64,000 nt of DNA from a plasmid: sequence record NZ_CP090684.1; one strand, given 5' to 3'. How positions within the stretch are numbered: the stretch's first letter is position 1; each line of letters starts with the position of its first letter. Positions 18,120-51,308 of the stretch are shown piece by piece. Below the pieces are notes generated by a model. The model saw only the letters and a list, made by a program, of their open reading frames with translations. It was not told the DNA's origin and did no database searches. Position numbers and translations under genes: made by a program.

Positions 18120-18127
18120 GGCGTCGC

Positions 18128-19769: not shown

Positions 19770-20486
19770 ATGCAAGCCGCTCTTGCCCATCCTGAAACCA
19801 TCCATCCCGCGCTCTGGCGTGCCAGCCAGCTGGCGCGCTCGAGCTCGCGCGGCGTCGACACGGGGCACGCTGAGCTGACCGCCGAGCTACCCGGCGGCGG
19901 CTGGCCCGCGGGCGCGCTGGTCGATTTGCTGACGCAGCAGGCCGGCATCGGCGAGCTCCGGCTACTCGCGCCTGTACTGGCGCGCTCGAGCGGCCGACCG
20001 ATCATGCTGATCCAGCCGCTGCACGGGCTGCAGCCGCTGGCGCTGTCGTATTGGGGTGTCGATTCGTCCAGCTTCGTCCTGCTGCCTGCCCCGCGCACCG
20101 CCGACGCACTGTGGGCCGCCGAGCAGGTGCTGCGCGCCGGCACGTGCGCGGCTGTCCTGCTGTGGCAGTCAAACGTGCGCGCGGACGCGCTGCGGCGTCT
20201 GAACCTGGCCGCGCAAACCGGATCCGCACTGTTTTTCCTGTTCCGGCCGGCGGCCGCCGCACGCGACGCGTCGCCGGCGCCATTGCGGCTCGCGCTGGCC
20301 CCCAAGCGCGACGGCATCGAGATCACGTTCGTGAAGCGCCGCGGACCCGCGCGCGATACGCCGTTGTTCGTCCCGTTGTCCCCTTCGCCGATTTTGTTGA
20401 ATCGCCATGCAAGTCTGGATCGGCGTGCATCTGCCGCACCTCAACCTCGAAACGTTCCGGCCACGCTCGCCGGCGCCATCGCCTGA
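19770..20486 (+). CDS. imuA: ImuA, SOS-inducible RecA/SulA-like component of mutagenesis cassette
   Basis: Start at MQAALAHPETIHPALWRASQLA. The ORF-track extension to 19566 runs across the LexA box and is spurious. Confidence 0.75.
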   Translation: MQAALAHPETIHPALWRASQLARSSSRGVDTGHAELTAELPGGGWPAGALVDLLTQQAGIGELRLLAPVLARSSGRPIMLIQPLHGLQPLALSYWGVDSSSFVLLPAPRTADALWAAEQVLRAGTCAAVLLWQSNVRADALRRLNLAAQTGSALFFLFRPAAAARDASPAPLRLALAPKRDGIEITFVKRRGPARDTPLFVPLSPSPILLNRHASLDRRASAAPQPRNVPATLAGAIA

Positions 20487-21885
20487 CGATGCGCGCGGTC
20501 TCGTCGTGCTCGAGAGCGGCCGTGTCGTGGCGCTGGACCGTGCCGCGCGCGCGCTCGGCATCGTCGTCGGCATGCGGCGCGCCGGCGTGCTGTCGCTCGC
20601 GCCCGACGCACAGATCCGCGAGCGCGACGTCGTGCGAGAACGCGAACTCGTGCTCGGCGTCGCGTACGCGCTGCTGCAGTTCACGCCGAACGTCGTCGAC
20701 GCTGACGAAGCAGTGGTACTGCTCGACGTGACGGCCAGCCTGCGCCTTTTCCATGGCATTCGCGCGCTGCGCCGGCGCGTGCGCGACGTCGTCGCGTCGT
20801 TCGGCGTCTCCGCGGCAATCTCCGTCGCGTCGACAGGCCCGGCCGCATGGATGGTCGCGCGCGGGCTGCGCGGCGGCCTCGCGCTGTCTGCCCGGTCATT
20901 GCGCCGCGCGCTCGCGCGCGTGCCGCTCGTGGTCGCCCCTGATGCGCGGCGGTACGCGACGTGGTTCGACGAGCTCGGCTGCGAAACGCTGGCGGACCTG
21001 CAGCGCCTGCCCCGCGCCGGGCTCAAGAAGCGTTGCGGCACGCAGCTGCTCGACTGGCTCGACCAGGTGGCCGGCACTGCGCCGGCGGCCTATGACTGGC
21101 TCGACATGCCGCCGTCGTTCGACACGCGCGTCGAGCTGATGGACCGCGTCGAGCACGCCGAGGCGCTGTTGTTTGTCGCGCGCCGGCTGATCCTGCAGCT
21201 GACCGGTTGGCTCACGGCGAAGCAGCTGGACGTCGCAGCATTCGCGCTGCTGCTCGAGCACGAGCGCGGACGCGACGCGATTGCGCCGACCGAGATCGAG
21301 ATTTCGCTGGGCGCCCCCACGCGCTTCGAAGAGCACCTGACCCGGCTCGTCAAGGAGCGGCTTGGCCATGTCGAGCTCGCCGGGCCCGTGATCGCCGTGC
21401 GGCTCGTCGCGCGACGCGTGCAGGAAGCGGCCGCGCCGAGCGATTCGTTGTTCCCGGAACCCGGCGGCACGCCGCAGGATCACGCTCGATTGCTGGAACT
21501 GCTCACCGCGCGCCTCGGCGCAGAGAATGTGCTGGTCCCGGCTCCCATAGCCGACTACCGTCCGGAGCCGGCCGCCCGATGGGTGCCGATGCGCGACGCG
21601 CCGAAGGCGGCACCGCTGCCGGCGGATTTGCCGCGCCCCGCCTGGCTGCTCGCCAAGCCGGTGCCGCTGCTCACGCGCCAACACCGGCCGTTCTACGGTA
21701 CACCGCTGCGCATGGTGTCGCCTGGCGAGCGTATCGAAGGCGGATGGCAGGACGGGCAGACTGTGACGCGCGACTACTTCGTTGCCGAGGACGACAACGG
21801 CATCTGCTACTGGATCTTCAAGGAGCGGCCGACGGCCAGCGACGAAAGCGACTCGCGCTACTTTCTGCACGGCCTGTTCGGTTGA
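20407..21885 (+). CDS. imuB: ImuB, Y-family polymerase-like protein
   Basis: N-terminus MQVWIGVHLPHLNLE matches the ImuB consensus. Lies between imuA and dnaE2. Overlaps the imuA 3' end. Confidence 0.8.
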   Translation: MQVWIGVHLPHLNLETFRPRSPAPSPDDARGLVVLESGRVVALDRAARALGIVVGMRRAGVLSLAPDAQIRERDVVRERELVLGVAYALLQFTPNVVDADEAVVLLDVTASLRLFHGIRALRRRVRDVVASFGVSAAISVASTGPAAWMVARGLRGGLALSARSLRRALARVPLVVAPDARRYATWFDELGCETLADLQRLPRAGLKKRCGTQLLDWLDQVAGTAPAAYDWLDMPPSFDTRVELMDRVEHAEALLFVARRLILQLTGWLTAKQLDVAAFALLLEHERGRDAIAPTEIEISLGAPTRFEEHLTRLVKERLGHVELAGPVIAVRLVARRVQEAAAPSDSLFPEPGGTPQDHARLLELLTARLGAENVLVPAPIADYRPEPAARWVPMRDAPKAAPLPADLPRPAWLLAKPVPLLTRQHRPFYGTPLRMVSPGERIEGGWQDGQTVTRDYFVAEDDNGICYWIFKERPTASDESDSRYFLHGLFG

Positions 21886-21891
21886 TTCGCG

Positions 21892-24800
21892 ATGAGCGCT
21901 GCGAGCTACGGCGCCCTGCCCGCCTATGCGGAGCTGCAGGTCGCCAGCGACTTCTCGTTTCTGCACGGCGCGTCGCGCGCCGAGGAATACGTGGCGCGCG
22001 CGGCACAGCTCGGCTACAGCGCGATCGCGATCACCGATGAGTGCTCGCTCGCCGGCGTCGTGCGCGCGCACGTCGAAGCGAAGGCAGCCGGCCTGCCTCT
22101 GATCATCGGCTCGCACTTCCGGCTGACGGCCGCCGACGGCGCGCCGGCGATCGCGTTCAGCGCGCTCGCGATGAATCGCGACGGCTACGGCAACCTCTGC
22201 GAACTGGTGTCGCTCGGCCGTATGCGCGGCAAGAAAGGCAGCTACCGGTTGGCGCCGCGCGATCTCGAGCAGCCGGACGCGCCATTCACGCATCTGCGCG
22301 GCTTGCCCGACTGCATTGCGATCCTGTCGCCCGACTTCCCGGCCAATGAGCAGCGGCTCGACGCGCAGGTCGAATGGTTCGCGCGCGTGTTCGGCGATCG
22401 CGCATGGGTCGCGCTCACGCTGCATGCGCGTGCGATGGACGATATCCACCGCGGTGTCGTTGAACGCGTCGCCGCGCGCCACGGCGTGCCGGTGGTCGCA
22501 ACCAGCTGGCCGCTGATGCATGTGCGATCGCGCAAACCGCTGCAGGACGTTCTGACGTCAATCCGGCTGGGGCGGCCGGTGTCCGAGTGCGGATACGAGC
22601 TCGCGCCGAATGCAGAGCGGCATTTGCGATCGCGCTTGCGGCTTGCCAACCTCTACCCGGCCGGCGCGCTCGAGGAGACCGTGCGGGTCGCGCGGCGCTG
22701 CACGTTCTCACTCGACGACCTGAAGTACGAATATCCGGACGAGGTGGTTCCAGCCGGCTACGACGTCGCGACCTACCTGCGCGAACAGACGTATATCGGT
22801 GCGCAGCGGCGCTTTCCGGCCGGCATTCCGGTCGACGTGCAGGCGCAGATCGAACACGAGCTGCAGTTGATCGCGGAACTGAACTACGAGGCGTATTTCC
22901 TGACCGTCTACGACATCGTGCAATTCGCGCGTCAGAACGGCATCTTGTGCCAGGGCCGCGGGTCGGCGGCGAACTCCGCCGTCTGCTACTGCCTCGGCAT
23001 GACGGAGGTCGATCCCTCCCGTCAGTCGATGCTGTTCGAGCGGTTCATGAGCAAGGAGCGCAACGAGCCGCCGGACATCGACGTCGACTTCGAGCATCAG
23101 CGTCGCGAAGAGGTGATGCAGTACATCTACCGCAAGTACGGCCGCGATCGCGCGGCGCTGACCGCGGCCGTCAGCACGTACCGACCGCGCAGCGCATTGC
23201 GCGAGGCCGGCAAAGCGCTCGGCGTGGATCCGGCGATCGTCGATCGGGTCGCCAAAAGTCACCACTGGTTCGACTCGCGCGCGGATCTGCTCCAGCGTTT
23301 CGCCGAAGCCGGTCTCGATCCCGAGGCGCCGCTCAATCAGCAGTGGGCCGCGTTCGCCGCTCAGCTGCTCGGCTACCCGCGCCATCTGTCGCAGCACTCG
23401 GGTGGCTTCGTGATCAGCCGCGGCAAGCTCACGCGACTCGTGCCGGTCGAGAATGCCGCGATGGAAGATCGCACGATCATCCAGTGGGACAAGGACGATA
23501 TCGAAGCGCTCGGCATCCTGAAAATCGACGTGCTCGCGCTCGGCATGCTGTCGATGGTGCGCCGCGCGCTCGACATGATCTCGGAGAAGCGCGGCGAAAC
23601 GTTTGAGCTGCAGGACATACCGGCCGAAGACAAAGCGACCTACGACATGCTGTGCGACGGCGACAGCATGGGCGTATTCCAGGTCGAGTCGCGCGCGCAG
23701 ATGTCGATGCTGCCGCGCCTACGGCCGCAATGCTTCTACGATCTCGTGATCGAGGTCGCGATCGTTCGACCCGGCCCCGTGCAGGGCGGCATGGTGCATC
23801 CATATCTCCGCCGCCGGCAGGGACTTGAGCCCGTCACGTTCCCTTCAGACGGCATGGAAAAGGCGCTGAAGCGCACGCTCGGCGTGCCGATCTTCCAGGA
23901 GCAGGTGATGCAGGTCGCCATGCTTGCGGCCGGCTTCTCCGCCGGCGAGGCCGATCAGCTGCGACGTGCGATGGCGGCATGGAAACGCAAGGGCGGCCTC
24001 GAGCCATACCACGATCGGCTCGTGAGCGGCATGCTCGAGCGCGGCTACGATCGCGAATTCGCCGAGGCGATCTTCGCGCAGATCAAGGGCTTCGGCGAGT
24101 ACGGGTTTCCGGAGAGCCATGCGGCCAGCTTCGCGTTGCTCGTCTACTCGAGCGCGTGGTTGCGCCGGCACGAGCCGGCCGTGTTTCTGGCCTCGTTGCT
24201 CAACAGTCAGCCGATGGGCTTCTATACACCATCGCAGCTGCTGCAGGACGCGCGACGCCGTGGCGTTGAAGTATTACCTGTCGACGTGAACGTGAGCACG
24301 TGGGATTCAGTCATCGAGGGGCCGACGACCTCGGCGCCGGTGCGTCTCGGATTCTCACTGCTGCGCGGCATGCGCGCGGACGTCGCCGGCCGCATCGAGC
24401 TCGCGCGCGCGGTGCGGCCGTTCGTCGACGTCGCGGATCTCGCTCGACGGGCGCAGCTCGATCGGCACGACCTGCAGGTACTCGCCCGCGCGAACGCGCT
24501 GCGCTCGCTCGCCGGCGGCAATCGTCGCGCCGCGCTGTGGCTGGCGGCCGCGGCGATCCCCGATCGGGATCTGTTGCGCGGCACTGAGCGTGACGACGCC
24601 GTGCCGGCGCTGCCGCAGGCGTCGGAAGGCAAGGAGATTGTGACCGACTATCGCGCGATGGGCTTCACGCTCGGCCGGCACCCACTGGCGCTGCTGCGCG
24701 ATCGTCTGACGCTCGATCGTTTGCAGTCGGCCGAGCAGCTGGCAACGTTACGCAGCGGCCAGCTCGCGCGCGCATGCGGACTGGTCACCGTGCGACAACG

Positions 24801-25041
24801 GCCGGGCACGGCCAACGGCGTGCTGTTCATGACGCTCGAGGACGAGACGGGCCAGGTGAACGTGATCCTGTGGCCCGGTCTGCTGGAGAAGTTTCGCAAG
24901 GAGGCGCTAGGCGCGGCGCTCCTCGCGGTCTACGGTGTATGGCAGGCCGAGGGGAAGGTGCGGCACTTGATCGCGAGCAAGCTCGTCGACCGGAGCGAAT
25001 TGCTCGGCTCGCTGCCGACGACGGCAAGGGAGTTTTGTTGA
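21892..25041 (+). CDS. dnaE2: Error-prone DNA polymerase DnaE2 (ImuC)
   Basis: 1049 aa. PHP domain (LQVASDFSFLHGAS), Pol III alpha core, and OB fold. Confidence 0.95.
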   Translation: MSAASYGALPAYAELQVASDFSFLHGASRAEEYVARAAQLGYSAIAITDECSLAGVVRAHVEAKAAGLPLIIGSHFRLTAADGAPAIAFSALAMNRDGYGNLCELVSLGRMRGKKGSYRLAPRDLEQPDAPFTHLRGLPDCIAILSPDFPANEQRLDAQVEWFARVFGDRAWVALTLHARAMDDIHRGVVERVAARHGVPVVATSWPLMHVRSRKPLQDVLTSIRLGRPVSECGYELAPNAERHLRSRLRLANLYPAGALEETVRVARRCTFSLDDLKYEYPDEVVPAGYDVATYLREQTYIGAQRRFPAGIPVDVQAQIEHELQLIAELNYEAYFLTVYDIVQFARQNGILCQGRGSAANSAVCYCLGMTEVDPSRQSMLFERFMSKERNEPPDIDVDFEHQRREEVMQYIYRKYGRDRAALTAAVSTYRPRSALREAGKALGVDPAIVDRVAKSHHWFDSRADLLQRFAEAGLDPEAPLNQQWAAFAAQLLGYPRHLSQHSGGFVISRGKLTRLVPVENAAMEDRTIIQWDKDDIEALGILKIDVLALGMLSMVRRALDMISEKRGETFELQDIPAEDKATYDMLCDGDSMGVFQVESRAQMSMLPRLRPQCFYDLVIEVAIVRPGPVQGGMVHPYLRRRQGLEPVTFPSDGMEKALKRTLGVPIFQEQVMQVAMLAAGFSAGEADQLRRAMAAWKRKGGLEPYHDRLVSGMLERGYDREFAEAIFAQIKGFGEYGFPESHAASFALLVYSSAWLRRHEPAVFLASLLNSQPMGFYTPSQLLQDARRRGVEVLPVDVNVSTWDSVIEGPTTSAPVRLGFSLLRGMRADVAGRIELARAVRPFVDVADLARRAQLDRHDLQVLARANALRSLAGGNRRAALWLAAAAIPDRDLLRGTERDDAVPALPQASEGKEIVTDYRAMGFTLGRHPLALLRDRLTLDRLQSAEQLATLRSGQLARACGLVTVRQRPGTANGVLFMTLEDETGQVNVILWPGLLEKFRKEALGAALLAVYGVWQAEGKVRHLIASKLVDRSELLGSLPTTAREFC

Positions 25042-25078: not shown

Positions 25079-25405
25079 TTAGAACAACGACATTTGCCTC
25101 GGGTCGCATTCCGGCCCCTTTGGCGATCGCTTGACCGCCACAGTGCGACGCATCCACGCGACCAGTGGAACGCCCATGCCATCCACGGTAACTGCAAAGC
25201 CGAACGCCTCTTGCCCCTCGCGAGTCCAGTCCGGGAGCTGCTTCCAAGTCGGGCTCCATCCGCGGGCCCTCGCGCACTCCATCAAGCGCTCTTTCGTGAG
25301 ACCCGGCTCGCAGCACGCGACGAATCGGGCAAGGGGTGTCGGCACCAGTTCCTTCGGAAAAGTCCCCGGTAACGAGAATGAAACCAATCGCAACGTCCTC
25401 GCCAT
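25079..25405 (-). CDS. Hypothetical protein downstream of repA
   Basis: 108-aa ORF co-directional with the rep/par module. Confidence 0.35.
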   Translation of the reverse strand: MARTLRLVSFSLPGTFPKELVPTPLARFVACCEPGLTKERLMECARARGWSPTWKQLPDWTREGQEAFGFAVTVDGMGVPLVAWMRRTVAVKRSPKGPECDPRQMSLF

Positions 25406-25469
25406 TTCTACCCTCGACAGGCAGTAAGCAGTTCAATCGCTCGGATCCGGCCGCTACGGCTCGGGCGAA

Positions 25470-26594
25470 CTATGTCCCAGCAATCAGTTCAAGCTGGCCA
25501 ACGTCTCGCGCGTCCGAATCCCAGCGGCGCAGCGCGTAGTACCACTTTGACAGCTTCTTGGCCAGCAACTCACGATGAATGCTCGCTGTGAGTTGCTCGT
25601 CCTGCCGTCGGTTGTCACGGTCGCACCGAAAGAAGACGACCATTGCCTTGTCGTCGTCGAGCGCTATGTGAAATTCCGGCAGTTTGTCCGCTTTCATGGC
25701 CGCAATGAGATCTCTGCGGAAATACTTAAGTGCTTGAGCGGACCCCGACTTGCCGTAGAGCTTTTCAAGGCCGATTTTGAACCACAGCTTGTCACCACAG
25801 TGCTTCTTGGCCAAATCGTAAAGGCGACGCTCAAGACCTTGCCCCAAATCGAAGTAACCCGGATGTAGGGTTAGGATGCGCCGACTCAGCAACAAATCGT
25901 AGGTCCAACTCGACAATACTAGCTCGACCTCCAGCGCCCCTTTCCGATTGGCGGTATACGTGATCACCGAATATTCCTGGATCAACCCGTATCCGCGTAA
26001 GGTCTCGTGGATCCCGGCTTCATTGGCACCCGGGCGCGTCGTATCGAAATTTGTTTCGATGATGGTGCCTTTCAAGCGTCGGCAGCTATCAACGATGCGC
26101 TCATACGAAGCGCCGCCCGTACTGCGTCGGGTGTATTTGAGAAAGTCACGGACCTTGAATCGGATTCGGCGTGAAACCGGGATATCGGAGTCGGCCGCCT
26201 TGCAAATCAGTGTAGCGGCGTAGACGAGCAGATCCTTATCGAAGATATTTGCCGCCCCCACCCCGCTTGGGATGATTCTGACGATTTGTTCGCCGTTGCG
26301 GTAGACGCGAACCCGCGTGTCTTTGCCCTTTTGCAGTGAGAAAAGGGGGAACTCGAGAGAATGAAGGTCCTCGCGGGGCTTCCAGGACAAGTCAAGTTGC
26401 TCGCCGAAAAACAGTTCGAGCTGCTCTGGATCGAACTCGCCCTCGTCCAGTCGAACGACATCATCGCCGTCGGCTGAGTTTTCCGATTGCTCAGCGCCTT
26501 GGCTGCGTGCCAATGGTGGTCGTGCGCCCATCGGCAACTGCGCCGCTCCTGCCCCCCTCAGTGAGTAGCTGTTCTCGGAATTGACTGTACTCAT
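25470..26594 (-). CDS. repA: Plasmid-type replication initiator protein (RepA/RPA family-like)
   Basis: 374 aa. Positioned after the korA-korB-incC-like genes. Resembles 'replication initiator protein A' of Proteobacterial plasmids and islands. Confidence 0.6.
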   Translation of the reverse strand: MSTVNSENSYSLRGAGAAQLPMGARPPLARSQGAEQSENSADGDDVVRLDEGEFDPEQLELFFGEQLDLSWKPREDLHSLEFPLFSLQKGKDTRVRVYRNGEQIVRIIPSGVGAANIFDKDLLVYAATLICKAADSDIPVSRRIRFKVRDFLKYTRRSTGGASYERIVDSCRRLKGTIIETNFDTTRPGANEAGIHETLRGYGLIQEYSVITYTANRKGALEVELVLSSWTYDLLLSRRILTLHPGYFDLGQGLERRLYDLAKKHCGDKLWFKIGLEKLYGKSGSAQALKYFRRDLIAAMKADKLPEFHIALDDDKAMVVFFRCDRDNRRQDEQLTASIHRELLAKKLSKWYYALRRWDSDARDVGQLELIAGT

Positions 26595-26616
26595 TCTCTC
26601 CTGCTTTCCCCGTATT

Positions 26617-27027
26617 TCATTCCAGCTTGCTCGTTTGCGTGCCGAGATGTTTGATCAGGGCAGACACTGCCGACTGGACTTTATTCGTATCTTTCGATCG
26701 TTGTGCCTTCGCAAGGAAGCGCGCGAGCGGTTCGACAAGCGGGCTCGGCACTTCGAATTCCTGCTTTAGCCAGACGATGACCTCCGCACTTCGCAGTTCC
26801 GAGTTCGTCAGGCTCTCGTAGTAGCGCTTCACCAACTGGCTGACGCGTTGTCGAGAAACCCCAAATTCACTCGCAACGTCCGCCGCCGGCCGCCCGTCGA
26901 CGATCACGGCGCGTGCGATATCGCGAGTAGCTTCGTCAAACGGACGTGTCCCGAACTCGCGCGCGTGCTTCCGCATGGCGGAGTCCAATGCTGAAAAATG
27001 CTTCGCTGAAAGGCGGAATGTAGCCAA
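26617..27027 (-). CDS. KorA/TrfB-like HTH transcriptional repressor
   Basis: HTH ADVASEFGVSRQRVSQLVKRY. Located between parB and repA. Confidence 0.5.
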   Translation of the reverse strand: MATFRLSAKHFSALDSAMRKHAREFGTRPFDEATRDIARAVIVDGRPAADVASEFGVSRQRVSQLVKRYYESLTNSELRSAEVIVWLKQEFEVPSPLVEPLARFLAKAQRSKDTNKVQSAVSALIKHLGTQTSKLE

Positions 27028-27089
27028 GATTGCTTTCCGAATAGGTTGACAAGCAACGAACTGGCGCCTGCCCGCCTCGGTCCGTTGCG

Positions 27090-28448
27090 TTACAGCGACC
27101 AGTCGTTCGGCGCCAGAGGATGAATTTCGCGGTCGGTATCGTAACCGAAGTCATCTGGCAGAACGCCGGGTCGCCGGCACGGATGCAATCTGTTCAGCAG
27201 CTCGAGCGGCCCACTCGAATTTATTTCATCATTGAACCTGTTTATTATTTTACCCGCTGTTTCAGTTGGCATGCCAGCAAGCGCCGAGGCAGCCAGGTCC
27301 ACAAAGCAGACCCACAACCTCCATTCGATGTCCTCCGCACGCACGCCAGCCGCCGAAAGGTCGGCGTGCAACCGGCGAACTCTCTCGACGGATCCGGTGC
27401 CGATTTCGTAGATTTCCTCTACGCGCCAAACCGACGTCTCACTCGGATCGGCGGCGGCAGCGTGCAAACGCTTCGCTTTGGGTACTTGCCGCAGCCCCTC
27501 CGGAGATGCCGCCGGGCTCGGAGCTAGGCGAGCGTCCGCCATATTCGGCACATCGGCATCATGTTCTGCGCCGTGGGCCGCCTGACCCTCGAATACAGGA
27601 CCAGGTGACGGTTGTTGGCCATCGTCAATGGACTGCGATGCAGTAGAACCCGGTGCCTCGGCCGGCGCGCTCGAGCGAGCCATAGCAGCTGCCTCGCCGA
27701 CCGCATCTTTCACCGACGGAGCGGCGACCTGCTTCAGCAGGTTCAGTCGCGCATCGAGCGTCAAGCGTCCGAACTTCTTTCCTGCCCGCATGTCCGTTGC
27801 GATTTCGTGCGCAGTCGCGGCACTGCAAGCCTCGATGTCGGCCATTTTGTTGGCCGCTTCGACGTCGTCGAACATGTCCTCATCGAACAAGGCTCGGGTC
27901 GTGGGACCATAACGAAGGAACCGCAAGTGTTTCGAGACCCATGACGCGCTGCGCTCCTTGCCGCTCGGCGCCGCCCAGATGCTGGCTGCTTGCTCTCGCC
28001 CGTACAACTCGACGTCTGTCGCAAGGCCGATAGCCGTCTCTCTCACCGAGAGTTGCTTTCGATCGATGTTCTCGGACACCTGATACATCCGGATTGCCAA
28101 GTCTGACGTCCCGGCGGGGAAAATCTTTGCCTGTATCTCCGGCCAGTCGTTCAAAAGGCTGCCTCGGATGCGCCGCTCGCCGGCGATCAGCTCATACTCG
28201 TCGCTGTCCGAAATTGCTCGCACCAATATCGGCGTGTGCACGTGACCGATCGCCCGAAGCCGCTCGGCGAACGCCTGCACATCGGCGAAATCGTCGCGAA
28301 CTTGAGGTTTGATCCGAACTTTATTGACCGCGATGAACCTCGTCACCGCCCCTGTGGCCTGCTCGATTTCAGCCACACGCGATGCCGCGCTTGCCGCTCG
28401 AGTCAGTGCCGAAATAGAAGCAAACTTCCCGCTTGTCGCCTGCTGCAT
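27090..28448 (-). CDS. parB: ParB/KorB-like partition protein (ParB N-terminal nuclease-like domain)
   Basis: ParB box ELIAGERRIRGS. Downstream of the ParA ATPase. Confidence 0.7.
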   Translation of the reverse strand: MQQATSGKFASISALTRAASAASRVAEIEQATGAVTRFIAVNKVRIKPQVRDDFADVQAFAERLRAIGHVHTPILVRAISDSDEYELIAGERRIRGSLLNDWPEIQAKIFPAGTSDLAIRMYQVSENIDRKQLSVRETAIGLATDVELYGREQAASIWAAPSGKERSASWVSKHLRFLRYGPTTRALFDEDMFDDVEAANKMADIEACSAATAHEIATDMRAGKKFGRLTLDARLNLLKQVAAPSVKDAVGEAAAMARSSAPAEAPGSTASQSIDDGQQPSPGPVFEGQAAHGAEHDADVPNMADARLAPSPAASPEGLRQVPKAKRLHAAAADPSETSVWRVEEIYEIGTGSVERVRRLHADLSAAGVRAEDIEWRLWVCFVDLAASALAGMPTETAGKIINRFNDEINSSGPLELLNRLHPCRRPGVLPDDFGYDTDREIHPLAPNDWSL

Positions 28449-28462
28449 TCAACGACCCCTCT

Positions 28463-29305
28463 TTATGCGTTGCTCACCGAAAGGCCGATGCGCTCCAAAA
28501 TGGAGTCGCACACGGCGTGCATTTCTTTCGCAGCAAGCCGATCACTTTCGCCCCTCCGACGCGCCCACACCGGATGAAAACTTGTCAGGCGGACCCCCGC
28601 ACGATCGCGCAATTCGTGTTCGAGTACTGCGTCGTCGAACGCATTCCGAACAGTCGTCCTCATCGATTGGTCATCGGCGCGTCGCAGATTGACCTTGTTG
28701 AGCAGAACGCCCACCAGCTCGAGATCCGGATTCCATTCGCGCTTGACGAGCTCAAGCTTCTCCGACGTACTGAGAAGGCCCGACATACTGTCAATTCCGA
28801 GATCAGTCGGAATCACGACGTAGTCGGCGCAGATCATCCCGCCCAACACGAGGTTGCTCATCGTTGGCGCGGTGTCGATCACGCACAGATCAAATTGGTC
28901 CGCCAGTGCATCCAAGGATTCCCGCGCCTTCGCCGCTGATTCGAGCGGCCAAGTCATGACGTCCTCGAGCTCCGGCGTCGCGCCGATCATTGCCGCCCCG
29001 TCGACAATTCGCATTGGATTGACGTCCCGTTTGCCCTGGTAGAGCAAGTGCGCACTCGAATTTTCTGTCACATCCGGTAGGCCCAAGTGCTCCCATGTAA
29101 GTGCCGCGCCCATCACCGACGGACCCGACTTCGCGGTCAGCTTTCGGTACAGCATCGACCTTGTCAGATTGCCTTGCGGATCCAGATCCACCACCAACAC
29201 GCGGATCCCTCGCTCGATTGCCGTGTAGACCAGATGCCGAACAATAGTCGTCTTGCCGGTGCCGCCCTTCCCATTCACGATGCTTATCTTCTTCATGGCC
29301 ACCAT
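28463..29305 (-). CDS. parA: ParA/IncC partition ATPase
   Basis: Deviant Walker A KGGTGKTT. Confidence 0.9.
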   Translation of the reverse strand: MVAMKKISIVNGKGGTGKTTIVRHLVYTAIERGIRVLVVDLDPQGNLTRSMLYRKLTAKSGPSVMGAALTWEHLGLPDVTENSSAHLLYQGKRDVNPMRIVDGAAMIGATPELEDVMTWPLESAAKARESLDALADQFDLCVIDTAPTMSNLVLGGMICADYVVIPTDLGIDSMSGLLSTSEKLELVKREWNPDLELVGVLLNKVNLRRADDQSMRTTVRNAFDDAVLEHELRDRAGVRLTSFHPVWARRRGESDRLAAKEMHAVCDSILERIGLSVSNA

Positions 29306-29306
29306 C

Positions 29307-29690
29307 TCATGCGCAGGCCAGTGCTTCGATTGGCTGAAACGAGCGGCCCAACGTATGGAAGACCGCTAGCCAGTTCGCCGCATAAACATTCACGCGCCCG
29401 CTCGCCACACTGAAGTAACCGCCTTGCTCCAGCTGGGTTACGCATGCTGTGCCTCGCATCAGATCTACGTCGAAGCAAATGCGGGATTGGGAACGCCGGT
29501 GGTCACCGGCAATATCCTGTGCAATCTCGATCTCGAGATGGCCGTCAACTCCATCGTCGATCGTGCAATGAACCGCCATATCCCCCGGCACGCGCGGTGG
29601 AGCAAACCGTGTTCGTGATGCGCTCACCCCCAGCTCCGGAATGAGGTCGACAAGAAGTCGGTAGATGCGGGATTGCACGGTGCTCGACAT
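29307..29690 (-). CDS. Hypothetical protein, first gene of par/rep operon
   Basis: Start MSSTVQSRIYRLL with GGAG RBS. 2-nt gap to parA. Confidence 0.4.
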   Translation of the reverse strand: MSSTVQSRIYRLLVDLIPELGVSASRTRFAPPRVPGDMAVHCTIDDGVDGHLEIEIAQDIAGDHRRSQSRICFDVDLMRGTACVTQLEQGGYFSVASGRVNVYAANWLAVFHTLGRSFQPIEALACA

Positions 29691-29777
29691 TTGGTTCTCC
29701 ATCTTTTTTTGGTTGCTCTTTTTCCGGCGTTGGCACACCGCCGGACCTCGTAGTTCTTTCATCTTATTATTAGATAC

Positions 29778-29790
29778 GTTGACGGTCAAC
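29778..29790. promoter_or_regulatory. Perfect inverted repeat GTTGAC-G-GTCAAC in the par/rep operon promoter region (candidate KorA/ParA operator)
   Basis: Palindrome in the AT-rich leader about 90 bp upstream of the first operon gene. Confidence 0.4.
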
Positions 29791-30253
29791 ATATCTAGGT
29801 TGAATGCTGGCGAAATCGTGCGGTCGAACGCTCTGGGCTGTTGAAATTGAACGCTGAGAGCCAGGTCCCCAAGGCGGACAGCATTTCGCTCGCCTGCGAT
29901 ATATAATTTTAATCACTTATCACAGTGATCTATTTTCGCATGCGAAACCGCTTACCTCCAAGCATTCGAGCTGGAGTGCATAGAATGAGCGCTCGAAGTG
30001 TGTTTGCCGCGCCACAAAGCGGCCTGCTCGGGCCGCGCAGATTTCCGACTTCCCCTTTGTCCAACCGACCTGCATCACATTGCGCTGCGTTAAGCCGCGC
30101 CGCATCCTGCATCGGACGGCTCGGTGAAACCGCCGGAGCAAAGAGGCTGGTCCGGTAAAATGGGGCCACATTAAAAACGTAAGCACCCGCAGCGGGATCA
30201 TATCCGATCTAGGTCAAAATGGGATAGCCACTGGAACGGGCGAGCATTCGGAT

Positions 30254-30820
30254 ATGCCCCGGTCCATCCCGATTACCAGTGAGCGCTATCGGCGCCTTCG
30301 CGTTCAACTTGCCACCATGCGCATCCGCGCAGGTCTAACGCAAACTGAACTCGCAAAACGTTTGCACATCGACCAATCGAACCTGTCCAAGATCGAACGA
30401 GGAGAGCGCTACGTCGACTTCCTGACCTACGTCGACTGGTGCCGAGCCTGTGGCGTCTCCCCTGCCACATCAATGAGAAAGTTCTTGGAGCAGGACGACA
30501 GTCCACGACGGCCAGCCGACACCTCGATTCCTAAATCGGCGCGCAGCCAGCCGACGAAGCACGGGCCGCGGCGCGATCAGCAACATAGTCCGCACCGCGT
30601 ACCGCCCGTCAAAGTCGTGTCATCGATAAGCCAGCAGGAATTCTTGAGGTTCGCGAAAGCAACGCTCGGAATGACGTGGGATCAACTTGCAGCAGCTGCA
30701 GAGATCAACGCCCGCGCCCTGAAAACGTACCGCATGCCGGATACGTCGAAGGACTTCAGGCCACTCCCGATGCTTGCGAGAGCCGCAATCGAGAAGCTTC
30801 TTGACGGGCACTCCGCCTGA
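30254..30820 (+). CDS. XRE-family HTH transcriptional regulator (two HTH-like halves)
   Basis: LTQTELAKRLHIDQSNLSKIERGERY is a classic HTH_XRE motif. Confidence 0.7.
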   Translation: MPRSIPITSERYRRLRVQLATMRIRAGLTQTELAKRLHIDQSNLSKIERGERYVDFLTYVDWCRACGVSPATSMRKFLEQDDSPRRPADTSIPKSARSQPTKHGPRRDQQHSPHRVPPVKVVSSISQQEFLRFAKATLGMTWDQLAAAAEINARALKTYRMPDTSKDFRPLPMLARAAIEKLLDGHSA

Positions 30821-33307: not shown

Positions 33308-35620
33308 TCACCACGTCCAGCGCTCACCGGCCACTTCGGCCCACGCCTCGCTCTCCGACGCACACCGATGCTGTTCTGCGGTCATCGCGATCTGAACAAG
33401 CAGGTCATCGACGCGCCGATCGAACGCATCTTGGTTGTCAAATGGCACCTGTAGCACGGTCACACCGTCTCGGATCGGCGTCCGCCCGAACCCGGCCAGT
33501 ACTTCACGTTCGACGCGCTCGAGGACGCGTGCGCGACCACGCCCGCCCGGCCGCTTCGGCTCGACCCGCAGCTTCACGTGCACGGCGACGAGTTGGGCCG
33601 CTGCGCCCGTGTCCGCCCGGGCAGGCGGCGACGCGACCGGCACGCCCATGGCCGCCGGCGGATCCGCGCGATCGAGCGCGGCGTTGAACAACGCCTCGAC
33701 CGACTGGAACTGGCGTACCGCATCCGCCTTTGTATATAGCGTGGTGGTCCCTAGGCTGGCATGACCGAGCAACTCCTGCATGTCTCGTATGTCCGCGCCG
33801 GCGTCCAGGCCATGGTTCGCGAAAGTGTGGCGCAACCAGTGCGTGCTCGCACGGCGCAAGTCCGCCGCCGCGTTCGGATACGTGGCGGCCAACTGATCCG
33901 CCGCCCGCGCAAAAATCCCCTTGTAGAGCCGTCCGACCACGTCCGGATGCAGTGCTTCGCCGGTCACCAGGTTCGCGATGAGCGGCGTATCGGCCGGCGC
34001 GGTTTCGAGCGTCAGCGGAATCGGGCGGGCGCGCAGCTGCGCGCGCAGCGCGTCGATGAGTCGCCGCGGCATCGGCACAGTGCGTGCGCGCCGGCCCTTG
34101 CCCATCACCTTCAGGCTCCACGCATCGTCGAGCGCGCCATCGAGCGCGGTGCGCGTGAGTGCGCCGGTGGTCGCGGCGGCGATTTCAGCCCGTCGCAGTC
34201 CGGTGACGTAGGCAAACAACAGCAGGAACGCGTCGCGCGCGTTTGCAGCCTGATTCGCTGACCGATTCGCCAGTTGGGAGTCGCCGCCATCGAAGGCCGA
34301 CGTAGGGCGCAGCACCGTCTGCAGCACATACTGCCACTGCGCACGCGTGAGCGAGCGCCCGGTCGCGTCGATCGGTACCGAGGGCGCGGCCGGAAGTCCA
34401 GCGAACGGATTCACACGCAGATACTGCTGGGCAACCAACCATTCGCCCATCGCATTCAGGATCCGCCGCGCGGTGTCGCGGCTGCGTTCGGACAGCGGCC
34501 CGACGAACGGTCGCCATGCGGGATCGAAACGCTCGACGCGGCTGCGGCCGATCCAGCGCGCAGCGGGTTGCGGGTCGCGCAGGAACACGTCGAGATATTC
34601 CGCGCAGTCCATCGTATTCAACGACGACAGCGGCTTGCCCTTCGCGACGATCGCCCACAGCAGCAATCGCTCGGCTTCGCGCCGGTACGCGCGGCGGGTC
34701 GCTTCGCTGCGCGCGCCGCGCGTCGCGATCCAGGCATGTACCGCCTGCAGGTCGGTGTTCAGTTCGGCCTGGTGCGCAGGCACAGGTGCACGGTTCAGGC
34801 CGGCCGAGCCGTCGAGGGCGGCTGGCACGCGCAGCGCCTCGAGCGGCGCCACGTCGGCAGCAGCGCCCGGTAGCGGCTGCAGCGCCGGGTGACCCGGTGC
34901 GAAATGCCGACGCGGCGTGACGGCGAGAGGCGAAAGGTACCCAAGCGTGTCCGGGTGTTGCGCAATGAAGTCGGTAATGCGCTGCGCGCCGATCGCGCCC
35001 AGGCGCGGTATCGCGCGGTACCACCGTTGGCGCCGTGTACGCATCAGCGCGAGCAGCTCGGCGAACGTCGTGATGCCGGCCGCCGCGAGCCGTGCGACCA
35101 CGCGCGAGTCGAACCAGCCGTCGAGCGTGTGGTCGGGCCGCGGCGCCTCGACGAGACTGGCCTCCATGCGCGCGAGTGCGGCGTCCTGGCGATCGCGTAG
35201 TCGACGATTGCGCGCGGTCTTGCTATCGAGCGCGGGCGACGACGCCGGCGGGTAGGTCTCGATATACAGCGCGACGAGCTCCCGCTCGCTGTAGAACGCG
35301 TCCGGATCCACCTCGGCCCGGAACTCCTCGAGCGTCGGCACTTCCCGGCCGGCCGCGGCGCCGGCGTGCGCGTCGCGCGGCAGGCTACCAGGTTTCAGGC
35401 GTAGCAGGTGCGCGGCGTCGACGTCGCGCGCGCGCCGCGCGGCGATCGTGAGCGTATCGCGCAGCGTCGCGATCGTGCGGCGCGTCACGCGCACGTCGGT
35501 CCCCGGCACGCCGTAGTGCGCATGCAGCGTCGCTTCGTCGAGCCCTTCGAGGTACGCTCGGTACAGCGCGAAGTGGCCCGGGGTCAGGCGCAGCGTTGCG
35601 CGAGCGGGTGAAGCACGCAC
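33308..35620 (-). CDS. Large tyrosine recombinase/integrase with N-terminal DUF3701-like HhH region
   Basis: 770 aa. Box II HWLRHTFANHGL...LLGHASLGTTTLYTKA. Helix-hairpin-helix region (ITTFAELLALMRTRRQRWYRAIPRLGAIGAQRITDF). Last gene of a coupled operon. Confidence 0.85.
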   Translation of the reverse strand: MRASPARATLRLTPGHFALYRAYLEGLDEATLHAHYGVPGTDVRVTRRTIATLRDTLTIAARRARDVDAAHLLRLKPGSLPRDAHAGAAAGREVPTLEEFRAEVDPDAFYSERELVALYIETYPPASSPALDSKTARNRRLRDRQDAALARMEASLVEAPRPDHTLDGWFDSRVVARLAAAGITTFAELLALMRTRRQRWYRAIPRLGAIGAQRITDFIAQHPDTLGYLSPLAVTPRRHFAPGHPALQPLPGAAADVAPLEALRVPAALDGSAGLNRAPVPAHQAELNTDLQAVHAWIATRGARSEATRRAYRREAERLLLWAIVAKGKPLSSLNTMDCAEYLDVFLRDPQPAARWIGRSRVERFDPAWRPFVGPLSERSRDTARRILNAMGEWLVAQQYLRVNPFAGLPAAPSVPIDATGRSLTRAQWQYVLQTVLRPTSAFDGGDSQLANRSANQAANARDAFLLLFAYVTGLRRAEIAAATTGALTRTALDGALDDAWSLKVMGKGRRARTVPMPRRLIDALRAQLRARPIPLTLETAPADTPLIANLVTGEALHPDVVGRLYKGIFARAADQLAATYPNAAADLRRASTHWLRHTFANHGLDAGADIRDMQELLGHASLGTTTLYTKADAVRQFQSVEALFNAALDRADPPAAMGVPVASPPARADTGAAAQLVAVHVKLRVEPKRPGGRGRARVLERVEREVLAGFGRTPIRDGVTVLQVPFDNQDAFDRRVDDLLVQIAMTAEQHRCASESEAWAEVAGERWTW

Positions 35621-39984: not shown

Positions 39985-40013
39985 AGGGACGGCTCCAGTT
40001 CAATTGCGACGGC

Positions 40014-40085: not shown

Positions 40086-41117
40086 TTATCTGCGGCTACC
40101 TGCGCCCTTCGGGCTGGCCGGATTTTCGCGGGAAACTGTGCGTGCCGGCTTGTCGGCGCGCAGCCCGCAAAAAGACGGATGCCGTAACCGGCCGGCCGGC
40201 GTCCACTCGAGAAACGCCACTTCGGCGACGAGGTCGGGCTTCAGCCAGTGAAACTCACGATCGACCTCAGGGTCGGGGGCGCTGGCAAACGGCGAGCGTT
40301 TGCGGCCCAACGCCGAGAGCCGACTCTCGAATTCCCGAGCCTGTCGCGGCGTAAAGCTCGGCGCGACGTGGCCGACATAGCGCAGGCGACCACCCTCCTC
40401 GTACACGCCCAACAGCAACGCCCGCACCCCTGCTGTCGCCCCTTTCCGGCGGGAAAACCCGCCGATCACGAACTCCTGGCGTCTGACACATTTCAATTTG
40501 ATCCACCGATCCGACCGTCCGGACCGATACGGTGCGTCGATTTGCTTGCCAATGATGCCTTCGAGGCCGAGCTCACATGCGGATGCCAGCATGGCGGACG
40601 CATCTGCCTCGATCGCCTCGGAAAATCGAACCTCCTCCCGAAGAACTTCACCGATGATTCCCGTTAGAGCGGATCGGCGCTCGTGCCATGGCCGACGGCG
40701 AAGGTCAGTGTCGTCTATCCACATAAGGTCGAAGACCACAAGACATATACCGGTGGTACGCCGACTGTTGAATGCTTCCTGCAGACGGCTGAAGTTAGGG
40801 CGCCCATCGGGGGCGAAACATACGGCCTCGGCATCAAGCCACGCGCGTTGGACCGGTAACCTCTTCAGGACCGCGGTCAGGTGCGGGAGCTTACTCGTCC
40901 AATCGTGGCCATTCCTTGTATAGAGCCGTACGTCACCATCATCGACGCGCACGAGCATCCGGTAACCGTCGAACTTTATCTCGTAGGCCCAATCTCCCGC
41001 CGGCGGCGGCTCGGACATTAGCACGGCCAAGGCAGGCGCAATGAATTCGGACATGCGCGCATTCTTGGCTACGACCACCCCCGCTCGGGTCTTTTGTGCT
41101 GTTGTACGCCGTTGCAT
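40086..41117 (-). CDS. ATP-dependent DNA ligase (LigD ligase-domain type, stand-alone)
   Basis: Motif I EIKFDGYR plus the downstream adenylation/OB region. Start likely at internal Met 41117 or 41054, because the parS palindrome at 41204-41219 lies in the annotated 5' extension. Confidence 0.7.
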   Translation of the reverse strand: MQRRTTAQKTRAGVVVAKNARMSEFIAPALAVLMSEPPPAGDWAYEIKFDGYRMLVRVDDGDVRLYTRNGHDWTSKLPHLTAVLKRLPVQRAWLDAEAVCFAPDGRPNFSRLQEAFNSRRTTGICLVVFDLMWIDDTDLRRRPWHERRSALTGIIGEVLREEVRFSEAIEADASAMLASACELGLEGIIGKQIDAPYRSGRSDRWIKLKCVRRQEFVIGGFSRRKGATAGVRALLLGVYEEGGRLRYVGHVAPSFTPRQAREFESRLSALGRKRSPFASAPDPEVDREFHWLKPDLVAEVAFLEWTPAGRLRHPSFCGLRADKPARTVSRENPASPKGAGSRR

Positions 41118-41203
41118 ACGGCCTCCCTCTTGCCGATCGGAATGCGCGCAATCGAGCGCAATCGATATACCCGACGGCCTTCGCAATTGACCGAGGCTTG
41201 CAC

Positions 41204-41219
41204 CTTGGCTCGAGCCAAG
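41204..41219. repeat. parS-like 16-bp perfect palindrome CTTGGCTCGAGCCAAG (copy 1)
   Basis: Self-complementary 16-mer. Four copies cluster around parAB. Confidence 0.65.
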
Positions 41220-41402
41220 ATCTCGGCGATCCATCGGGGTCAGCTTCCACTGCTTCAGCCGATACTCGATCCTGCTCTGGATTTGCAGGTCTTGCTGGCT
41301 ATCGGCACAAGAGCGAGTCCTTGACGATCTGGCTGGCGCGATACGCTCTTGCAGGTGCCATGTCCGGCTGGCGAGCGACGTTCATTGGAACGTCTTTGCG
41401 GT

Positions 41403-41418
41403 CTTGGCTCGAGCCAAG
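41403..41418. repeat. parS-like palindrome CTTGGCTCGAGCCAAG (copy 2)
   Basis: Identical 16-mer. Confidence 0.65.
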
Positions 41419-41459
41419 ATGCGCGCAGGCAACGCCAATTCAGACGTGGCTGCGGTGAT

Positions 41460-41475
41460 CTTGGCTCGAGCCAAT
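41460..41475. repeat. parS-like palindrome, 15/16 match (copy 3)
   Basis: CTTGGCTCGAGCCAAT. Confidence 0.6.
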
Positions 41476-41610
41476 CGCATAGCGGGCCCGAAGCGTTGTA
41501 GTGCGACCACATTTATAAGTCTTTTTTCGGGATTTTTACTCGGTTGATTGACATAGTTTGTTGGTCGAATGACAATCCGATCGTCGAAACATGCTTCGAG
41601 CGGAGGTTAA

Positions 41611-42282
41611 ATGGTCATCACCATCGGTGCGGAAAAAGGCGGCGTTGCGAAGACACGATTAGCGACGCACATCGCGGCATTAGCTGCGAGCGAGGGAGTG
41701 GACGTGGTTCTTCTCGATACGGACAAACAGGGGTCCGCTATGAGCTGGTCGCGAATTCGAAATGAGGAAGGCGTCACACCTTCCATCCCTGTACTCGCGC
41801 TCCCGGCGAATCCCGCACGCGAGCTAGCGAATCTGGCAAACAAGTACACGCTAGTGGTGGTTGATATCGGGGCGCAAAACTACCGGACCATGCTGGAATG
41901 CGCACTTTTATCCGATCTCGTGCTAGTTCCGTGTGGTCCCGACCAACAGGAAGTTGAATCAACTCTCAACGTTTTTGCGACCCTTAAGGACATGGGGCCC
42001 AGGCACGAGAGTGGGGAAATCCCAGCCTACGTTGTTCTTACGCGAGTTTCGCCGATTGAAGGATCCAAGGCGACGGCGGAACTGAGAAGCTATTTCAAAA
42101 GCGAAGATATCCGGTTGTTTGATTCGCAGATTCCCCAGCGGGAAGCATGGCGCGCGACCGGCAAGACTGGACGCGCGGTTCACGAGCTGAAAGGCCGCGA
42201 TCGTTCCAAAAAAGCGATTGAAGAGATGGAAGCGGTCTACCGGGAAATCATTAAGCGGATCAATGGTGGGGAGGAGGAATAA
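41611..42282 (+). CDS. parA: ParA-family partition ATPase (small type)
   Basis: Walker A GAEKGGVAKT. Confidence 0.85.
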   Translation: MVITIGAEKGGVAKTRLATHIAALAASEGVDVVLLDTDKQGSAMSWSRIRNEEGVTPSIPVLALPANPARELANLANKYTLVVVDIGAQNYRTMLECALLSDLVLVPCGPDQQEVESTLNVFATLKDMGPRHESGEIPAYVVLTRVSPIEGSKATAELRSYFKSEDIRLFDSQIPQREAWRATGKTGRAVHELKGRDRSKKAIEEMEAVYREIIKRINGGEEE

Positions 42283-43247: not shown

Positions 43248-43359
43248 GGGGCGCTGCTGCTTCGCAGCGCAAGCGGGTTACCGACACAGGGGCTAGAGGA
43301 CGTTGAGCTGGGATGTGCTGCGCTGTGCAACTGTGCACGGCTGCAGCATCTGGAAACTA

Positions 43360-43960
43360 TCGGCTCTGGAGCGATGGGTTCTCTTTACATCCTGTAAGAA
43401 AGTCTCGTGCTTGGAGCGATGGTGTATGACGTTCCTCCAGCGATGGTGCAGACGCGGCGGGCTTGAGCGCGAGAGTGTGTGCTCACCTTGCTTTGCGCAT
43501 CTCGGGTCGTTCTTCCAGCGATGCTTCTCGTCGAGAATCGTTCCTCCAGCGATGTTTGTGGGTGACTCGGCGGCCGGTACTGTCGTTCATGGAGCGATGA
43601 GTGACGGATCCACCGTGAGATTGTTGGGCTGCAGGTATCGTGCTTCCAGCGATGGATGACATGATTAGAAAAAGATTAAAGACGATTAGGCTTTGTGGAA
43701 AACATAGGTAGCCCACTGATTGCAAAGAGGTTTTTTGCGGATCGTGCTCGCTGGAAGAACGATAGATGCATCGCTGGCGATACGATGCACGCCTCGCTGG
43801 AGAGACGATGGGCAACGCTGCAGGAACGACAGAGGTTGCACGCTGGAGGAACGAGGAACATCGCTGCAGGAACGACTGCGCCGCGATACCTCGCTGGAGG
43901 GACGATAGTCCCGTAGTTTTTTTGCTGAACCATCGCTGGAGAGACGAGACAAGGGTCTTG
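43360..43960. repeat. Iteron-type origin of vegetative replication (oriV): about 15 direct repeats flanking an AT-rich core
   Basis: Seven copies of (C/T)(C/T)(G/C)(G/C)AGCGATG(G) at 43366-43655. AT-rich segment 43656-43700. Eight about 17-bp iterons CGCTGGAGnnACGAnnG at 43749-43950 with about 21-25 bp spacing. Immediately upstream of the trfA-like gene. Confidence 0.75.
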
Positions 43961-43991
43961 ATGGCGGGACCGACCTACATATACTTCTCGC

Positions 43992-44849: not shown

Positions 44850-45059
44850 AGAACAGCGCTGTTAGCTCGTTCCACAAGCGCCTTTGAAGGTTCGAATGCC
44901 CCTCGGTGGGCCGGCCGTTTTGTTGGAGACTTCAGGGTGTGGGAGGCGCGGCGGGGCAAACGAGGGCGGATATCGGTTTCGTTGACCGTTAGTTGCACAA
45001 TTCGTGTGGAGTCCCCAAGCAGACCGACATAAACGGGCTTGTAAACGCCTTCGCCTCTC

Positions 45060-51289: not shown

Positions 51290-51308
51290 GCGAAAGGCTC
51301 TGGATGTC

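Follow-up and report, generated by a model that had tools for sequence, protein, structure and literature searches.

Two replication and partition units on an F-type Burkholderia plasmid: a conserved RepA operon and a probably exchangeable TrfA cassette

The subject of this analysis is a replication and partition module at positions 25079-29790 of a 64,000-nucleotide stretch of plasmid record NZ_CP090684.1 (the whole stretch is referred to below as the window). A preliminary description of this DNA had noted that the module, which codes for RepA, a KorA-like protein, ParB and ParA, is accompanied on the opposite strand by an unrelated replicon with TrfA and ParAB, and had taken the pair as a sign of a cointegrate or mosaic mobile element. 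We think it likely instead that a fixed RepA control operon, together with an exchangeable second cassette, is the normal two-replicon design of F-type (MOBF/MPF_F) plasmids of Burkholderia, Paraburkholderia and Caballeronia, with no recent fusion involved. Open reading frames (ORFs) and profile matches bear out the presence of the module, although its assigned start also takes in a doubtful small ORF, and they place the RepA operon on the minus strand and the TrfA unit on the plus strand. The spacing was put at about 14 kb; it is 11.8 kb from operon to operon and 14.2 kb to the start of trfA.

The operon consists of five co-oriented genes, coding in order for a small protein, ParA, ParB, a KorA/ArdK-like protein and RepA, and this order is the same in eight related loci and in plasmid pI of P. 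dioscoreae. The RepA operon is carried by pBPSE01, pOLGA2, P. dioscoreae pI, plasmid p1 of B. contaminans, and contigs from Caballeronia and others. It is of interest that pBPSE01 also has in common with the window the junction between repA and dnaE2-imuB-imuA, a 770-residue integrase, an Xre gene, a Tat-signal protein, an SGNH hydrolase, DUF1173, a zeta toxin and the whole F-type transfer region. To judge by sequence comparison, the RepA operon is a conserved part of the plasmid backbone and not cargo.

The comparison with plasmid databases that had been proposed as a check was run, and all 87 DNA matches in the plasmid collection were to Burkholderia plasmids. The closest of these, CP048444 (a B. 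multivorans plasmid of 162 kb, typed MOBF/MOBP and MPF_F), is 97-99% identical across 25-64 kb of the window and carries both units. Contigs that encode exactly the window RepA are 2-200 kb long (59 blocks, none larger), most of them with the arrangement of the window, and the complete records with the RepA operon are plasmids. The restriction of the DNA matches to Burkholderia plasmids, and the size of the exact-RepA contigs, all below 200 kb, show that the element is plasmid-borne. The window is part of a large, mosaic, F-type conjugative plasmid of the B. multivorans type.

The second replicon slot and the TrfA cassette

The second unit lies in an exchangeable replicon slot of about 4.5 kb (40593..45075), which is delimited by sharp ends of DNA matches and which holds another cassette in CP090706, from B. 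multivorans. CP090706 is 96% identical to the window up to 40593 and 93% identical again from 45075. Between these points it has six ATCTCCACGTGGAGAT palindromes, ParA, ParB, at least 14 CGCATAnnTTGGGGCG iterons and a RepA of 324 residues (RepA324). In pBPSE01, pOLGA2, pI and four contigs (including Caballeronia) the second unit consists of a type-Ia ParA, a ParB and a protein of 395–422 residues annotated as 'replication protein O', here called the RepO-like cassette (L010 12578-16365 in pBPSE01; L017 45578-49280 in pOLGA2). It occupies the slot of the window in pBPSE01, and is directly beside the RepA operon in pOLGA2, pI and the contigs. The 395–422 residue protein gave no Pfam or NCBIfam match and the cassette has no visible iterons; the second module of pBPSE01 is called a replicon on the strength of its pOLGA2 homologue, which is annotated as 'replication protein O'. 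A tblastn search of complete pBPSE01 found no TrfA, ParA2 or ParB2.

A second par-rep cassette is present in every relative with enough flanking sequence, and is of one of three types (TrfA, RepA324 or RepO-like). The two-unit design is therefore family-wide, and it is the second unit that varies. The exchangeable cassette probably sets incompatibility or host range.

The TrfA cassette of the window begins with a parS cluster of three copies of CTTGGCTCGAGCCAAG (41204..41477) upstream of parA2, and a fourth copy lies inside parB2 (42420-42437). An upstream parS cluster combined with an internal parB site is the layout described for a B. cenocepacia plasmid Par system (PMC4948915). The gene parA2 (41611-42282, plus strand) codes for 223 residues and parB2 (42282-43247, plus strand) for 321; both have Pfam matches, as well as matches to ParA_partition (6e-37) and parB_part (1.4e-22) respectively. 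They are followed by oriV (43353..43947), with about 15 iterons TCGTTCYTCCAGCGATG in two opposed clusters, seven forward and eight reverse, directly upstream of trfA. No other repeat cluster in the window comes close to it in strength. The trfA gene (43992..44849, plus strand, 285 residues) matches PF07042 at 2e-34, with 119 bits against a cut-off of 22. With its profile match and adjacent iterons the unit has the features of a TrfA iteron replicon. It is the second replicon of the plasmid, is self-contained, has a ParABS of its own, and sits in a slot of the backbone.

The description of the two modules as unrelated is fair at the family level. RepA and TrfA have no pairwise similarity (BLASTP E = 0.8), and ParA1 and ParA2, like ParB1 and ParB2, have only core motifs in common (about 30% over 60-105 residues). 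TrfA does match the RPA profile weakly (4.9e-5), which makes a remote superfamily link likely.

An Rfam scan of the window gave no match in either replicon, and two small RNA matches at the edge of the cassette only. These are isrK (45074-45148, plus strand, 60.6 bits) and C4 antisense RNA (45175-45266, plus strand, 70 bits), both above the gathering score and arranged in tandem just upstream of the gene for a 427-residue Tat-signal protein. The start of isrK is the point at which homology to CP090706 resumes, that is, the right edge of the slot.

The RepA operon and its regulatory sites

The repA gene (25470..26594, minus strand) codes for a replication initiator of the RPA family, of 374 residues, with a match to PF10134 that covers the whole profile (positions 1-228 of 228) at 2.8e-56 and 191 bits against a cut-off of 27. 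A comparison with solved structures gave no match for RepA. The protein is 100% identical in CP048444, 89% in B. contaminans p1, 78% in pBPSE01, and 70% in both pOLGA2 and P. dioscoreae pI. The ratio of nonsynonymous to synonymous substitution (dN/dS) of repA is 0.05-0.08, which indicates strong purifying selection.

Upstream of repA in the transcript is the gene for a helix-turn-helix (HTH) repressor of the KorA/TrfB/ArdK family (26617..27027, minus strand, 136 residues; PF16509, 5e-9, 36.6 bits against a cut-off of 26.7). Its best solved structures are ArdK (7bbq, 5.7e-8) and KorA of RK2 (7e-5). ParB1 (27090..28448, minus strand, 452 residues) has a chromosomal-type ParB N-terminal and HTH region (ParB_N, 4.6e-7) with the motif GERRIRG. 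Its residues 31-189 match structures of Noc, Spo0J and ParB, and a profile search matched neither the KorB nor the KorB_C Pfam domain. ParA1 (28463..29305, minus strand, 277-280 residues) is a short ParA-type ATPase lacking the N-terminal HTH (AAA_31, 2.5e-28; CbiA, 2e-19; ParA_partition, 5e-23), and contains the deviant Walker A motif KGGTGKT. The deviant Walker A motif of ParA1 and the N-terminal domain of ParB1 with its GERRxR motif are what is expected of a ParABS system.

The first gene of the operon (29307..29792, minus strand) codes for a small conserved protein that has no Pfam or NCBIfam match, and that occurs at the same position in all eight related loci with 51-76% amino acid identity. 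The gene probably begins at about 29702 or 29690, because the promoter takes up the first 30 nucleotides of the long ORF. Shorter starts are annotated in pBPSE01 and in locus L023.

This promoter emerged when the upstream regions of six related loci were aligned, the proteins there being only about 50% identical. It reads TTGACC-17-TAAGAT (29761..29789, minus strand), lies in a block that is nucleotide-invariant in the six loci, and is one of only two sigma-70-like matches found by an independent promoter scan of 24.9-30.4 kb. Its -35 box is within an invariant inverted repeat, GTTGACNGTCAAC. The inverted repeat GTTGACGGTCAAC over the -35 box (29778..29790), invariant in the upstream alignment, has no other exact copy in the window and is the candidate operator for the KorA/ArdK-like protein. 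A repressor of this family is expected to have a repeat operator at the promoter of its own operon, and in sequence there is one here, with GTTGACNGTCAAC covering the -35 box as the candidate.

About 145 bp upstream of the promoter there is a perfect palindrome of 14 bp, TTTCGCATGCGAAA (29934..29947), which stands unchanged ahead of the operon in all related loci. A second exact copy (51282..51295) is situated within a perfect palindrome of 24 bp (51277-51300), a short way downstream of the genes for DUF1173 and the zeta toxin, at a site that is also present in CP048444. The window therefore has two exact copies; pBPSE01 has four, the palindrome adjoins the second cassette in loci of the pOLGA2 type, and the unrelated plasmid L011 has no exact copy. 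ParB proteins of the Noc/Spo0J type bind palindromes of 14–16 bp, and TTTCGCATGCGAAA is a candidate site for ParB1, as centromere or operator. It is worth adding that some of the dispersed copies sit in longer perfect palindromes whose outer arms differ (24 bp in the window; 30 bp in pBPSE01, L014 19232-19261), which suggests hairpin or terminator-like contexts around a protein-binding core.

On the basis of these features we propose how the operon might work. The KorA/ArdK-like protein would autoregulate the operon at the inverted repeat, since its closest structures, ArdK and KorA, belong to a family that binds TTGACA-type repeats at promoters (PMC9723621). ParB1, a ParB with a CTP motif, would load at the dispersed palindromes, which would function as centromere and possibly as silencing sites; this is proposed because ParB1 resembles ParB of the Noc/Spo0J type. 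ParA1 would segregate the plasmid, and RepA would fire an iteron origin made up of 8-11 copies of CGTCTATCNNNCCACC and a DnaA box. The conserved promoter and operator pair, and the dispersed palindrome, are directly testable as regulatory sites.

Divergent from the operon is an Xre-type HTH gene (30254..30820, plus strand; HTH_31/HTH_3, 1e-13), with homologues at the same position in L002-L005 and in pBPSE01. At the other end, between repA and dnaE2, is the doubtful small ORF mentioned above, orf108 (25079..25405, minus strand). It has no family match, is 54% identical in amino acid sequence to a counterpart in L002 only, and is predicted as a gene on a single metagenome contig. The spacer between dnaE2 and orf108 takes insertion sequences (IS) in the sister plasmids CP048444 and CP090706 (ISBmu23 or IS1356). 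A further observation concerns the operon transcript: 21 nucleotides over the first codons of repA (26569-26589) form an inverted match (19 of 21) to the interior of parA (28786-28806), within one and the same transcript. Of the four differences that B. contaminans p1 has in these segments, two are matched on both sides, and the motif inside parA has no match in the other six family loci. The match could reflect long-range RNA pairing over the start of repA, or chance.

The RepA origin and alternative readings

In the family the RepA origin has the iteron consensus CGTCTATCNNNCCACC and a DnaA box. It adjoins repA in the simple relatives and has elsewhere been moved 1–15 kb by cargo. In pALIDE201 and pIPM3H3-GES5 repA is followed directly by a TTATCCACA box with eight iterons (TCGTCTATCGGCGTACA or a variant) on its flanks, and this type of RepA module is the only annotated replicon of pIPM3H3-GES5, a plasmid of 37 kb. 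In P. dioscoreae pI there are 11 iterons immediately adjacent to repA on its downstream side. The distance downstream of repA is 1.1 kb in L003 (7 iterons), 2.9 kb in pOLGA2 (9), 7.3 kb in L005 (8), 8.2 kb in L006 (8), and about 8 kb in pBPSE01, where four iterons lie beyond imuABC. In CP048444 and CP090706 some 8-10 iterons and a perfect DnaA box are found about 15 kb downstream.

The window was searched for such an origin by repeat finding over 24.9-31.2 kb, by k-mer cluster scans over 24.9-33.4 kb and the whole window, and by a scan of the window with the consensus of the relatives. Repeat finding gave families at chance level only, the k-mer scans showed no cluster around the operon, and the consensus scan gave none in the window. 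Among AT-rich dips within the operon, those at the promoter and in a codon-driven stretch at the 3' end of parB stand out, neither of them convincing as an origin. The imuA-imuB-dnaE2 cassette separates repA from the side on which the relatives hold the RepA iterons, and this downstream side is filled in the window by imuABC and then by a 19.7 kb island of metal-resistance and recombinase genes. As no RepA iterons are present in the window, the RepA origin is either outside it or lost. The preliminary description had called both modules complete. This is true of the TrfA unit, for which the cis sites are present, while the RepA unit has its genes and candidate operators, and no iteron origin of the RepA type in the window.

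Several points weigh against the view that a fixed RepA operon and an exchangeable cassette form a normal two-replicon design. There are no RepA-type iterons, or any other repeat cluster, within 25 kb on either side of repA in the window, and RepA-driven replication of this plasmid is accordingly putative. No relative from the Burkholderiaceae family was found with the RepA operon as its sole par-rep unit, so that RepA may not suffice alone there. MOB-suite types CP048444 with two relaxases, MOBF and MOBP, which leaves room for some past fusion elsewhere on the plasmid. A literature search (pBPSE01; pTGL1/pBMUL01; Burkholderia with TrfA, multi-replicon) found nothing on this architecture. Finally, the two palindromes were assigned to ParB1 and to the KorA-like protein by inference only.

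The missing iterons are also an argument for regarding the RepA operon as no longer a replicon, but as a control and partition unit (KorA-like protein, ParA and ParB) whose RepA has no origin, with TrfA alone replicating the plasmid. The metal island and recombinase trio do replace the H-NS/SRAP side that leads to the iterons in the relatives, and a second rep cassette always accompanies the operon in the family. We nevertheless regard this as unlikely: repA is intact, is under strong purifying selection, and is identical to that of CP048444, which keeps its iterons and DnaA box. In relatives, moreover, repA and its origin can be more than 15 kb apart, and the absence of the origin from the window says little. 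Quite unlikely, too, is a recent cointegrate, in which independent plasmids of the RepA and TrfA types would have fused with the joint inside the window. It would account for two replicons of different families on opposite strands and for the two relaxases of CP048444, and the vapBC-ligD-parAB-trfA block is indeed about 83% identical to TrfA plasmids of B. cenocepacia such as that of HI2424. However, the DNA common to the window and these plasmids amounts to only 5.5 kb (39352-44852) and stops at the trfA stop codon. The cassette is flanked on both sides by RepA-family backbone as in pBPSE01 (h202 and the integrase on one side; the 427-residue Tat-signal protein, SGNH hydrolase, DUF1173, zeta toxin and F-type transfer genes on the other), CP090706 has a different cassette in the same slot, and in the window the cassette is not framed by any pair of IS or res sites. 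A cointegrate in the sense of two substantial backbones joined together is thus not what is found, with only 4.5-5.5 kb of TrfA-plasmid origin.

The remaining alternative is an integrative element, namely an integrative and conjugative element (ICE) or genomic island with a RepA-ParA-ParB stabilisation module, residing in a chromosome or captured by a plasmid. Modules of this kind are known on some ICE families, and integrase genes are nearby. This is very improbable given that exact copies of RepA are restricted to contigs below 200 kb, that the complete records bearing the operon are plasmids, and that the operator motif ties the operon in with the remainder of the plasmid backbone; nor is there any tRNA or att evidence, although att sites were not searched for. 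Base composition had been offered as an argument for mosaic origin, in that GC content is visibly lower at 41-49 and 54-64 kb. Values of 0.56–0.60 are indeed seen at 41-49 and 54-60 kb, but the RepA module is equally low (0.57-0.60). The outliers are the blocks of high GC, at imuABC (19-25 kb, 0.66–0.71) and around the integrase (33-38 kb, 0.67-0.71). Both maintenance units have the GC content of the backbone (0.56-0.60, with a third-position value, GC3, of about 0.6–0.7), so the argument is inverted, and composition marks neither replicon as foreign. The earlier idea of a mosaic with two replication and partition units therefore stands, and that of a captured plasmid or ICE finds no support: the element is plasmid-borne, the RepA operon belongs to the backbone and the TrfA unit is a short cassette.

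Returning to the two-replicon design, a stronger form of it may be put forward tentatively, although we would not rate it as probable. The family might be obligately two-replicon, with an invariant control replicon (RepA, KorA-like protein and ParAB, its origin moved by cargo over distances of up to 15 kb or more) and a dedicated slot in which whole parS-parAB-iteron-rep cassettes (TrfA, RepA324 or RepO-like) are swapped between backbones that are nearly identical elsewhere, TTTCGCATGCGAAA tying the backbone operons to the control replicon. If so, cassette exchange would let the plasmid escape incompatibility or change its host range, and in members of the pOLGA2 type TTTCGCATGCGAAA would also tie the second cassette to the control replicon.

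Multi-replicon plasmids with exchanged modules are already well known. What is new here is the particular layout of this family and its newly defined regulatory motifs. Such plasmids circulate in B. multivorans from cystic fibrosis and in B. pseudomallei, and bring with them cassettes for error-prone polymerase and islands of metal-resistance genes. For plasmid typing, for predicting incompatibility and host range, and for choosing targets for curing, it is useful to know which of the two units stays fixed and which can be exchanged. MOB-suite replicon typing assigns CP048444 to the TrfA-type rep_cluster_1467 only, and pBPSE01 and pOLGA2 to no replicon cluster.

Neighbouring genes and comparison with known systems

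The two integrase systems, VapBC and type IV secretion system (T4SS) listed in the preliminary description are all there. The first of the integrase systems is a recombinase trio (14269-19363), two members of which match Phage_integrase. It belongs to the left part of the window (1-25000), which is 99.5% identical to another B. multivorans plasmid whose backbone departs directly after dnaE2. According to the annotation of that DNA, this part contains copper/silver efflux genes, DsbD, three recombinase-like genes and imuA-imuB-dnaE2. The first 19.7 kb recur at 99.9% identity on plasmids from B. vietnamiensis, B. aenigmatica and Burkholderia sp. IDO3, which points to recent movement of the island. 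On related contigs the metal island runs on for more than 10 kb past the left end of the window and reaches genes for arsenic resistance.

The imuA-imuB-dnaE2 mutagenesis cassette (19770..25041, plus strand), identified by its IMS domain and by the same annotation, is convergent with repA. Convergence of this cassette with an initiator gene is seen in both plasmid lineages, the gene being trfA in B. cenocepacia HI2424 (L015 15452-21707) and repA in pBPSE01 (L008 4310-10573) and the window.

The second integrase system is the 770-residue tyrosine recombinase (33308..35620, minus strand; DUF3701 and Phage_integrase). In pBPSE01, pOLGA2 and L003-L006 there are copies, 62-85% identical, a few kb away from the operon. 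Together with its downstream genes the recombinase makes up the block of high GC noted above, which goes with the RepA operon in every member of the family and is found on numerous other plasmids of Burkholderia as well. Its role may be in multimer resolution or in recombination specific to the plasmid, and not that of the integrase of a mobile island. Between the RepA operon and vapBC are two genes that have no counterpart in any related locus by tblastn, coding for a 390-residue protein (31764-32936, minus strand), in place of which CP048444 has a different gene annotated as HEPN, and for a trypsin-like peptidase (36966-37886, minus strand). They seem to mark places next to the conserved integrase at which accessory genes vary. 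VapBC is at 39338-39984, and the F-type T4SS extends from about 54.5 kb.

Among known systems, the RPA replicons of betaproteobacterial F-type plasmids typed as rep_cluster_1864, pALIDE201 of Alicycliphilus denitrificans and pIPM3H3-GES5 of P. aeruginosa, have the same order of small ORF, ParA, ParB, TrfB-related protein and RepA as the window. They also have the iteron core type of its family (TCGTCTATC...CAC) and a DnaA box, and pALIDE201 is of the same transfer type (MOBF/MPF_F). They differ in having a RepA of only 47-50% identity and, between the genes for the repressor and RepA, a RelE/ParE toxin-antitoxin pair. Their origin is right beside repA, and they have no second replicon cassette. 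Much closer to the window are pBPSE01 (B. pseudomallei), pOLGA2 (P. phytofirmans) and pI (P. dioscoreae), with the five-gene operon, RepA at 70-78% identity, the promoter and operator motifs, the Xre gene, the large integrase, dispersed TTTCGCATGCGAAA sites and the same iteron type as in the family of the window (CP048444, CP090706). Here the difference is in the second unit, which is the type-Ia ParA/ParB/RepO-like cassette and not TrfA.

With the IncP-1 plasmids (RK2/RP4) the window has in common a repressor of the KorA family and a TrfA iteron replicon. RK2 combines its KorA-family repressor with ParA and ParB homologues and with palindromic operators scattered over the backbone, and the logic of the window is similar. 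However, the organisation is not that of the IncP-1 central control region, as the korA-like gene is downstream of parB and does not overlap parA. In addition, ParB1 has no KorB domain match, the operon has its own initiator of the RPA family, and trfA is 14 kb away with a separate ParABS. The plasmid is therefore not a member of IncP-1.

The TrfA cassette itself has counterparts in TrfA plasmids of the B. cepacia complex, for example plasmid 1 of B. cenocepacia HI2424 (rep_cluster_1467), where vapBC-ligD-parA-parB-trfA is about 83% identical in nucleotide sequence and imuABC likewise adjoins the rep gene. The J2315 plasmid of B. cenocepacia resembles it in having a parS cluster and an internal parS in parB. 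In HI2424, unlike the window, it is trfA itself that is convergent with dnaE2, the position held by repA in the window, and no RPA operon is present in the 23 kb examined. Finally, the multi-replicon IncF plasmids (mosaics of FIA, FIB and FII) also have several replicons on one F-type conjugative plasmid and exchange modules between similar backbones. The family described here differs from them in that its initiators are from unrelated families, and in that one unit, which carries the regulatory and partition genes, is invariant and only the other is exchanged.

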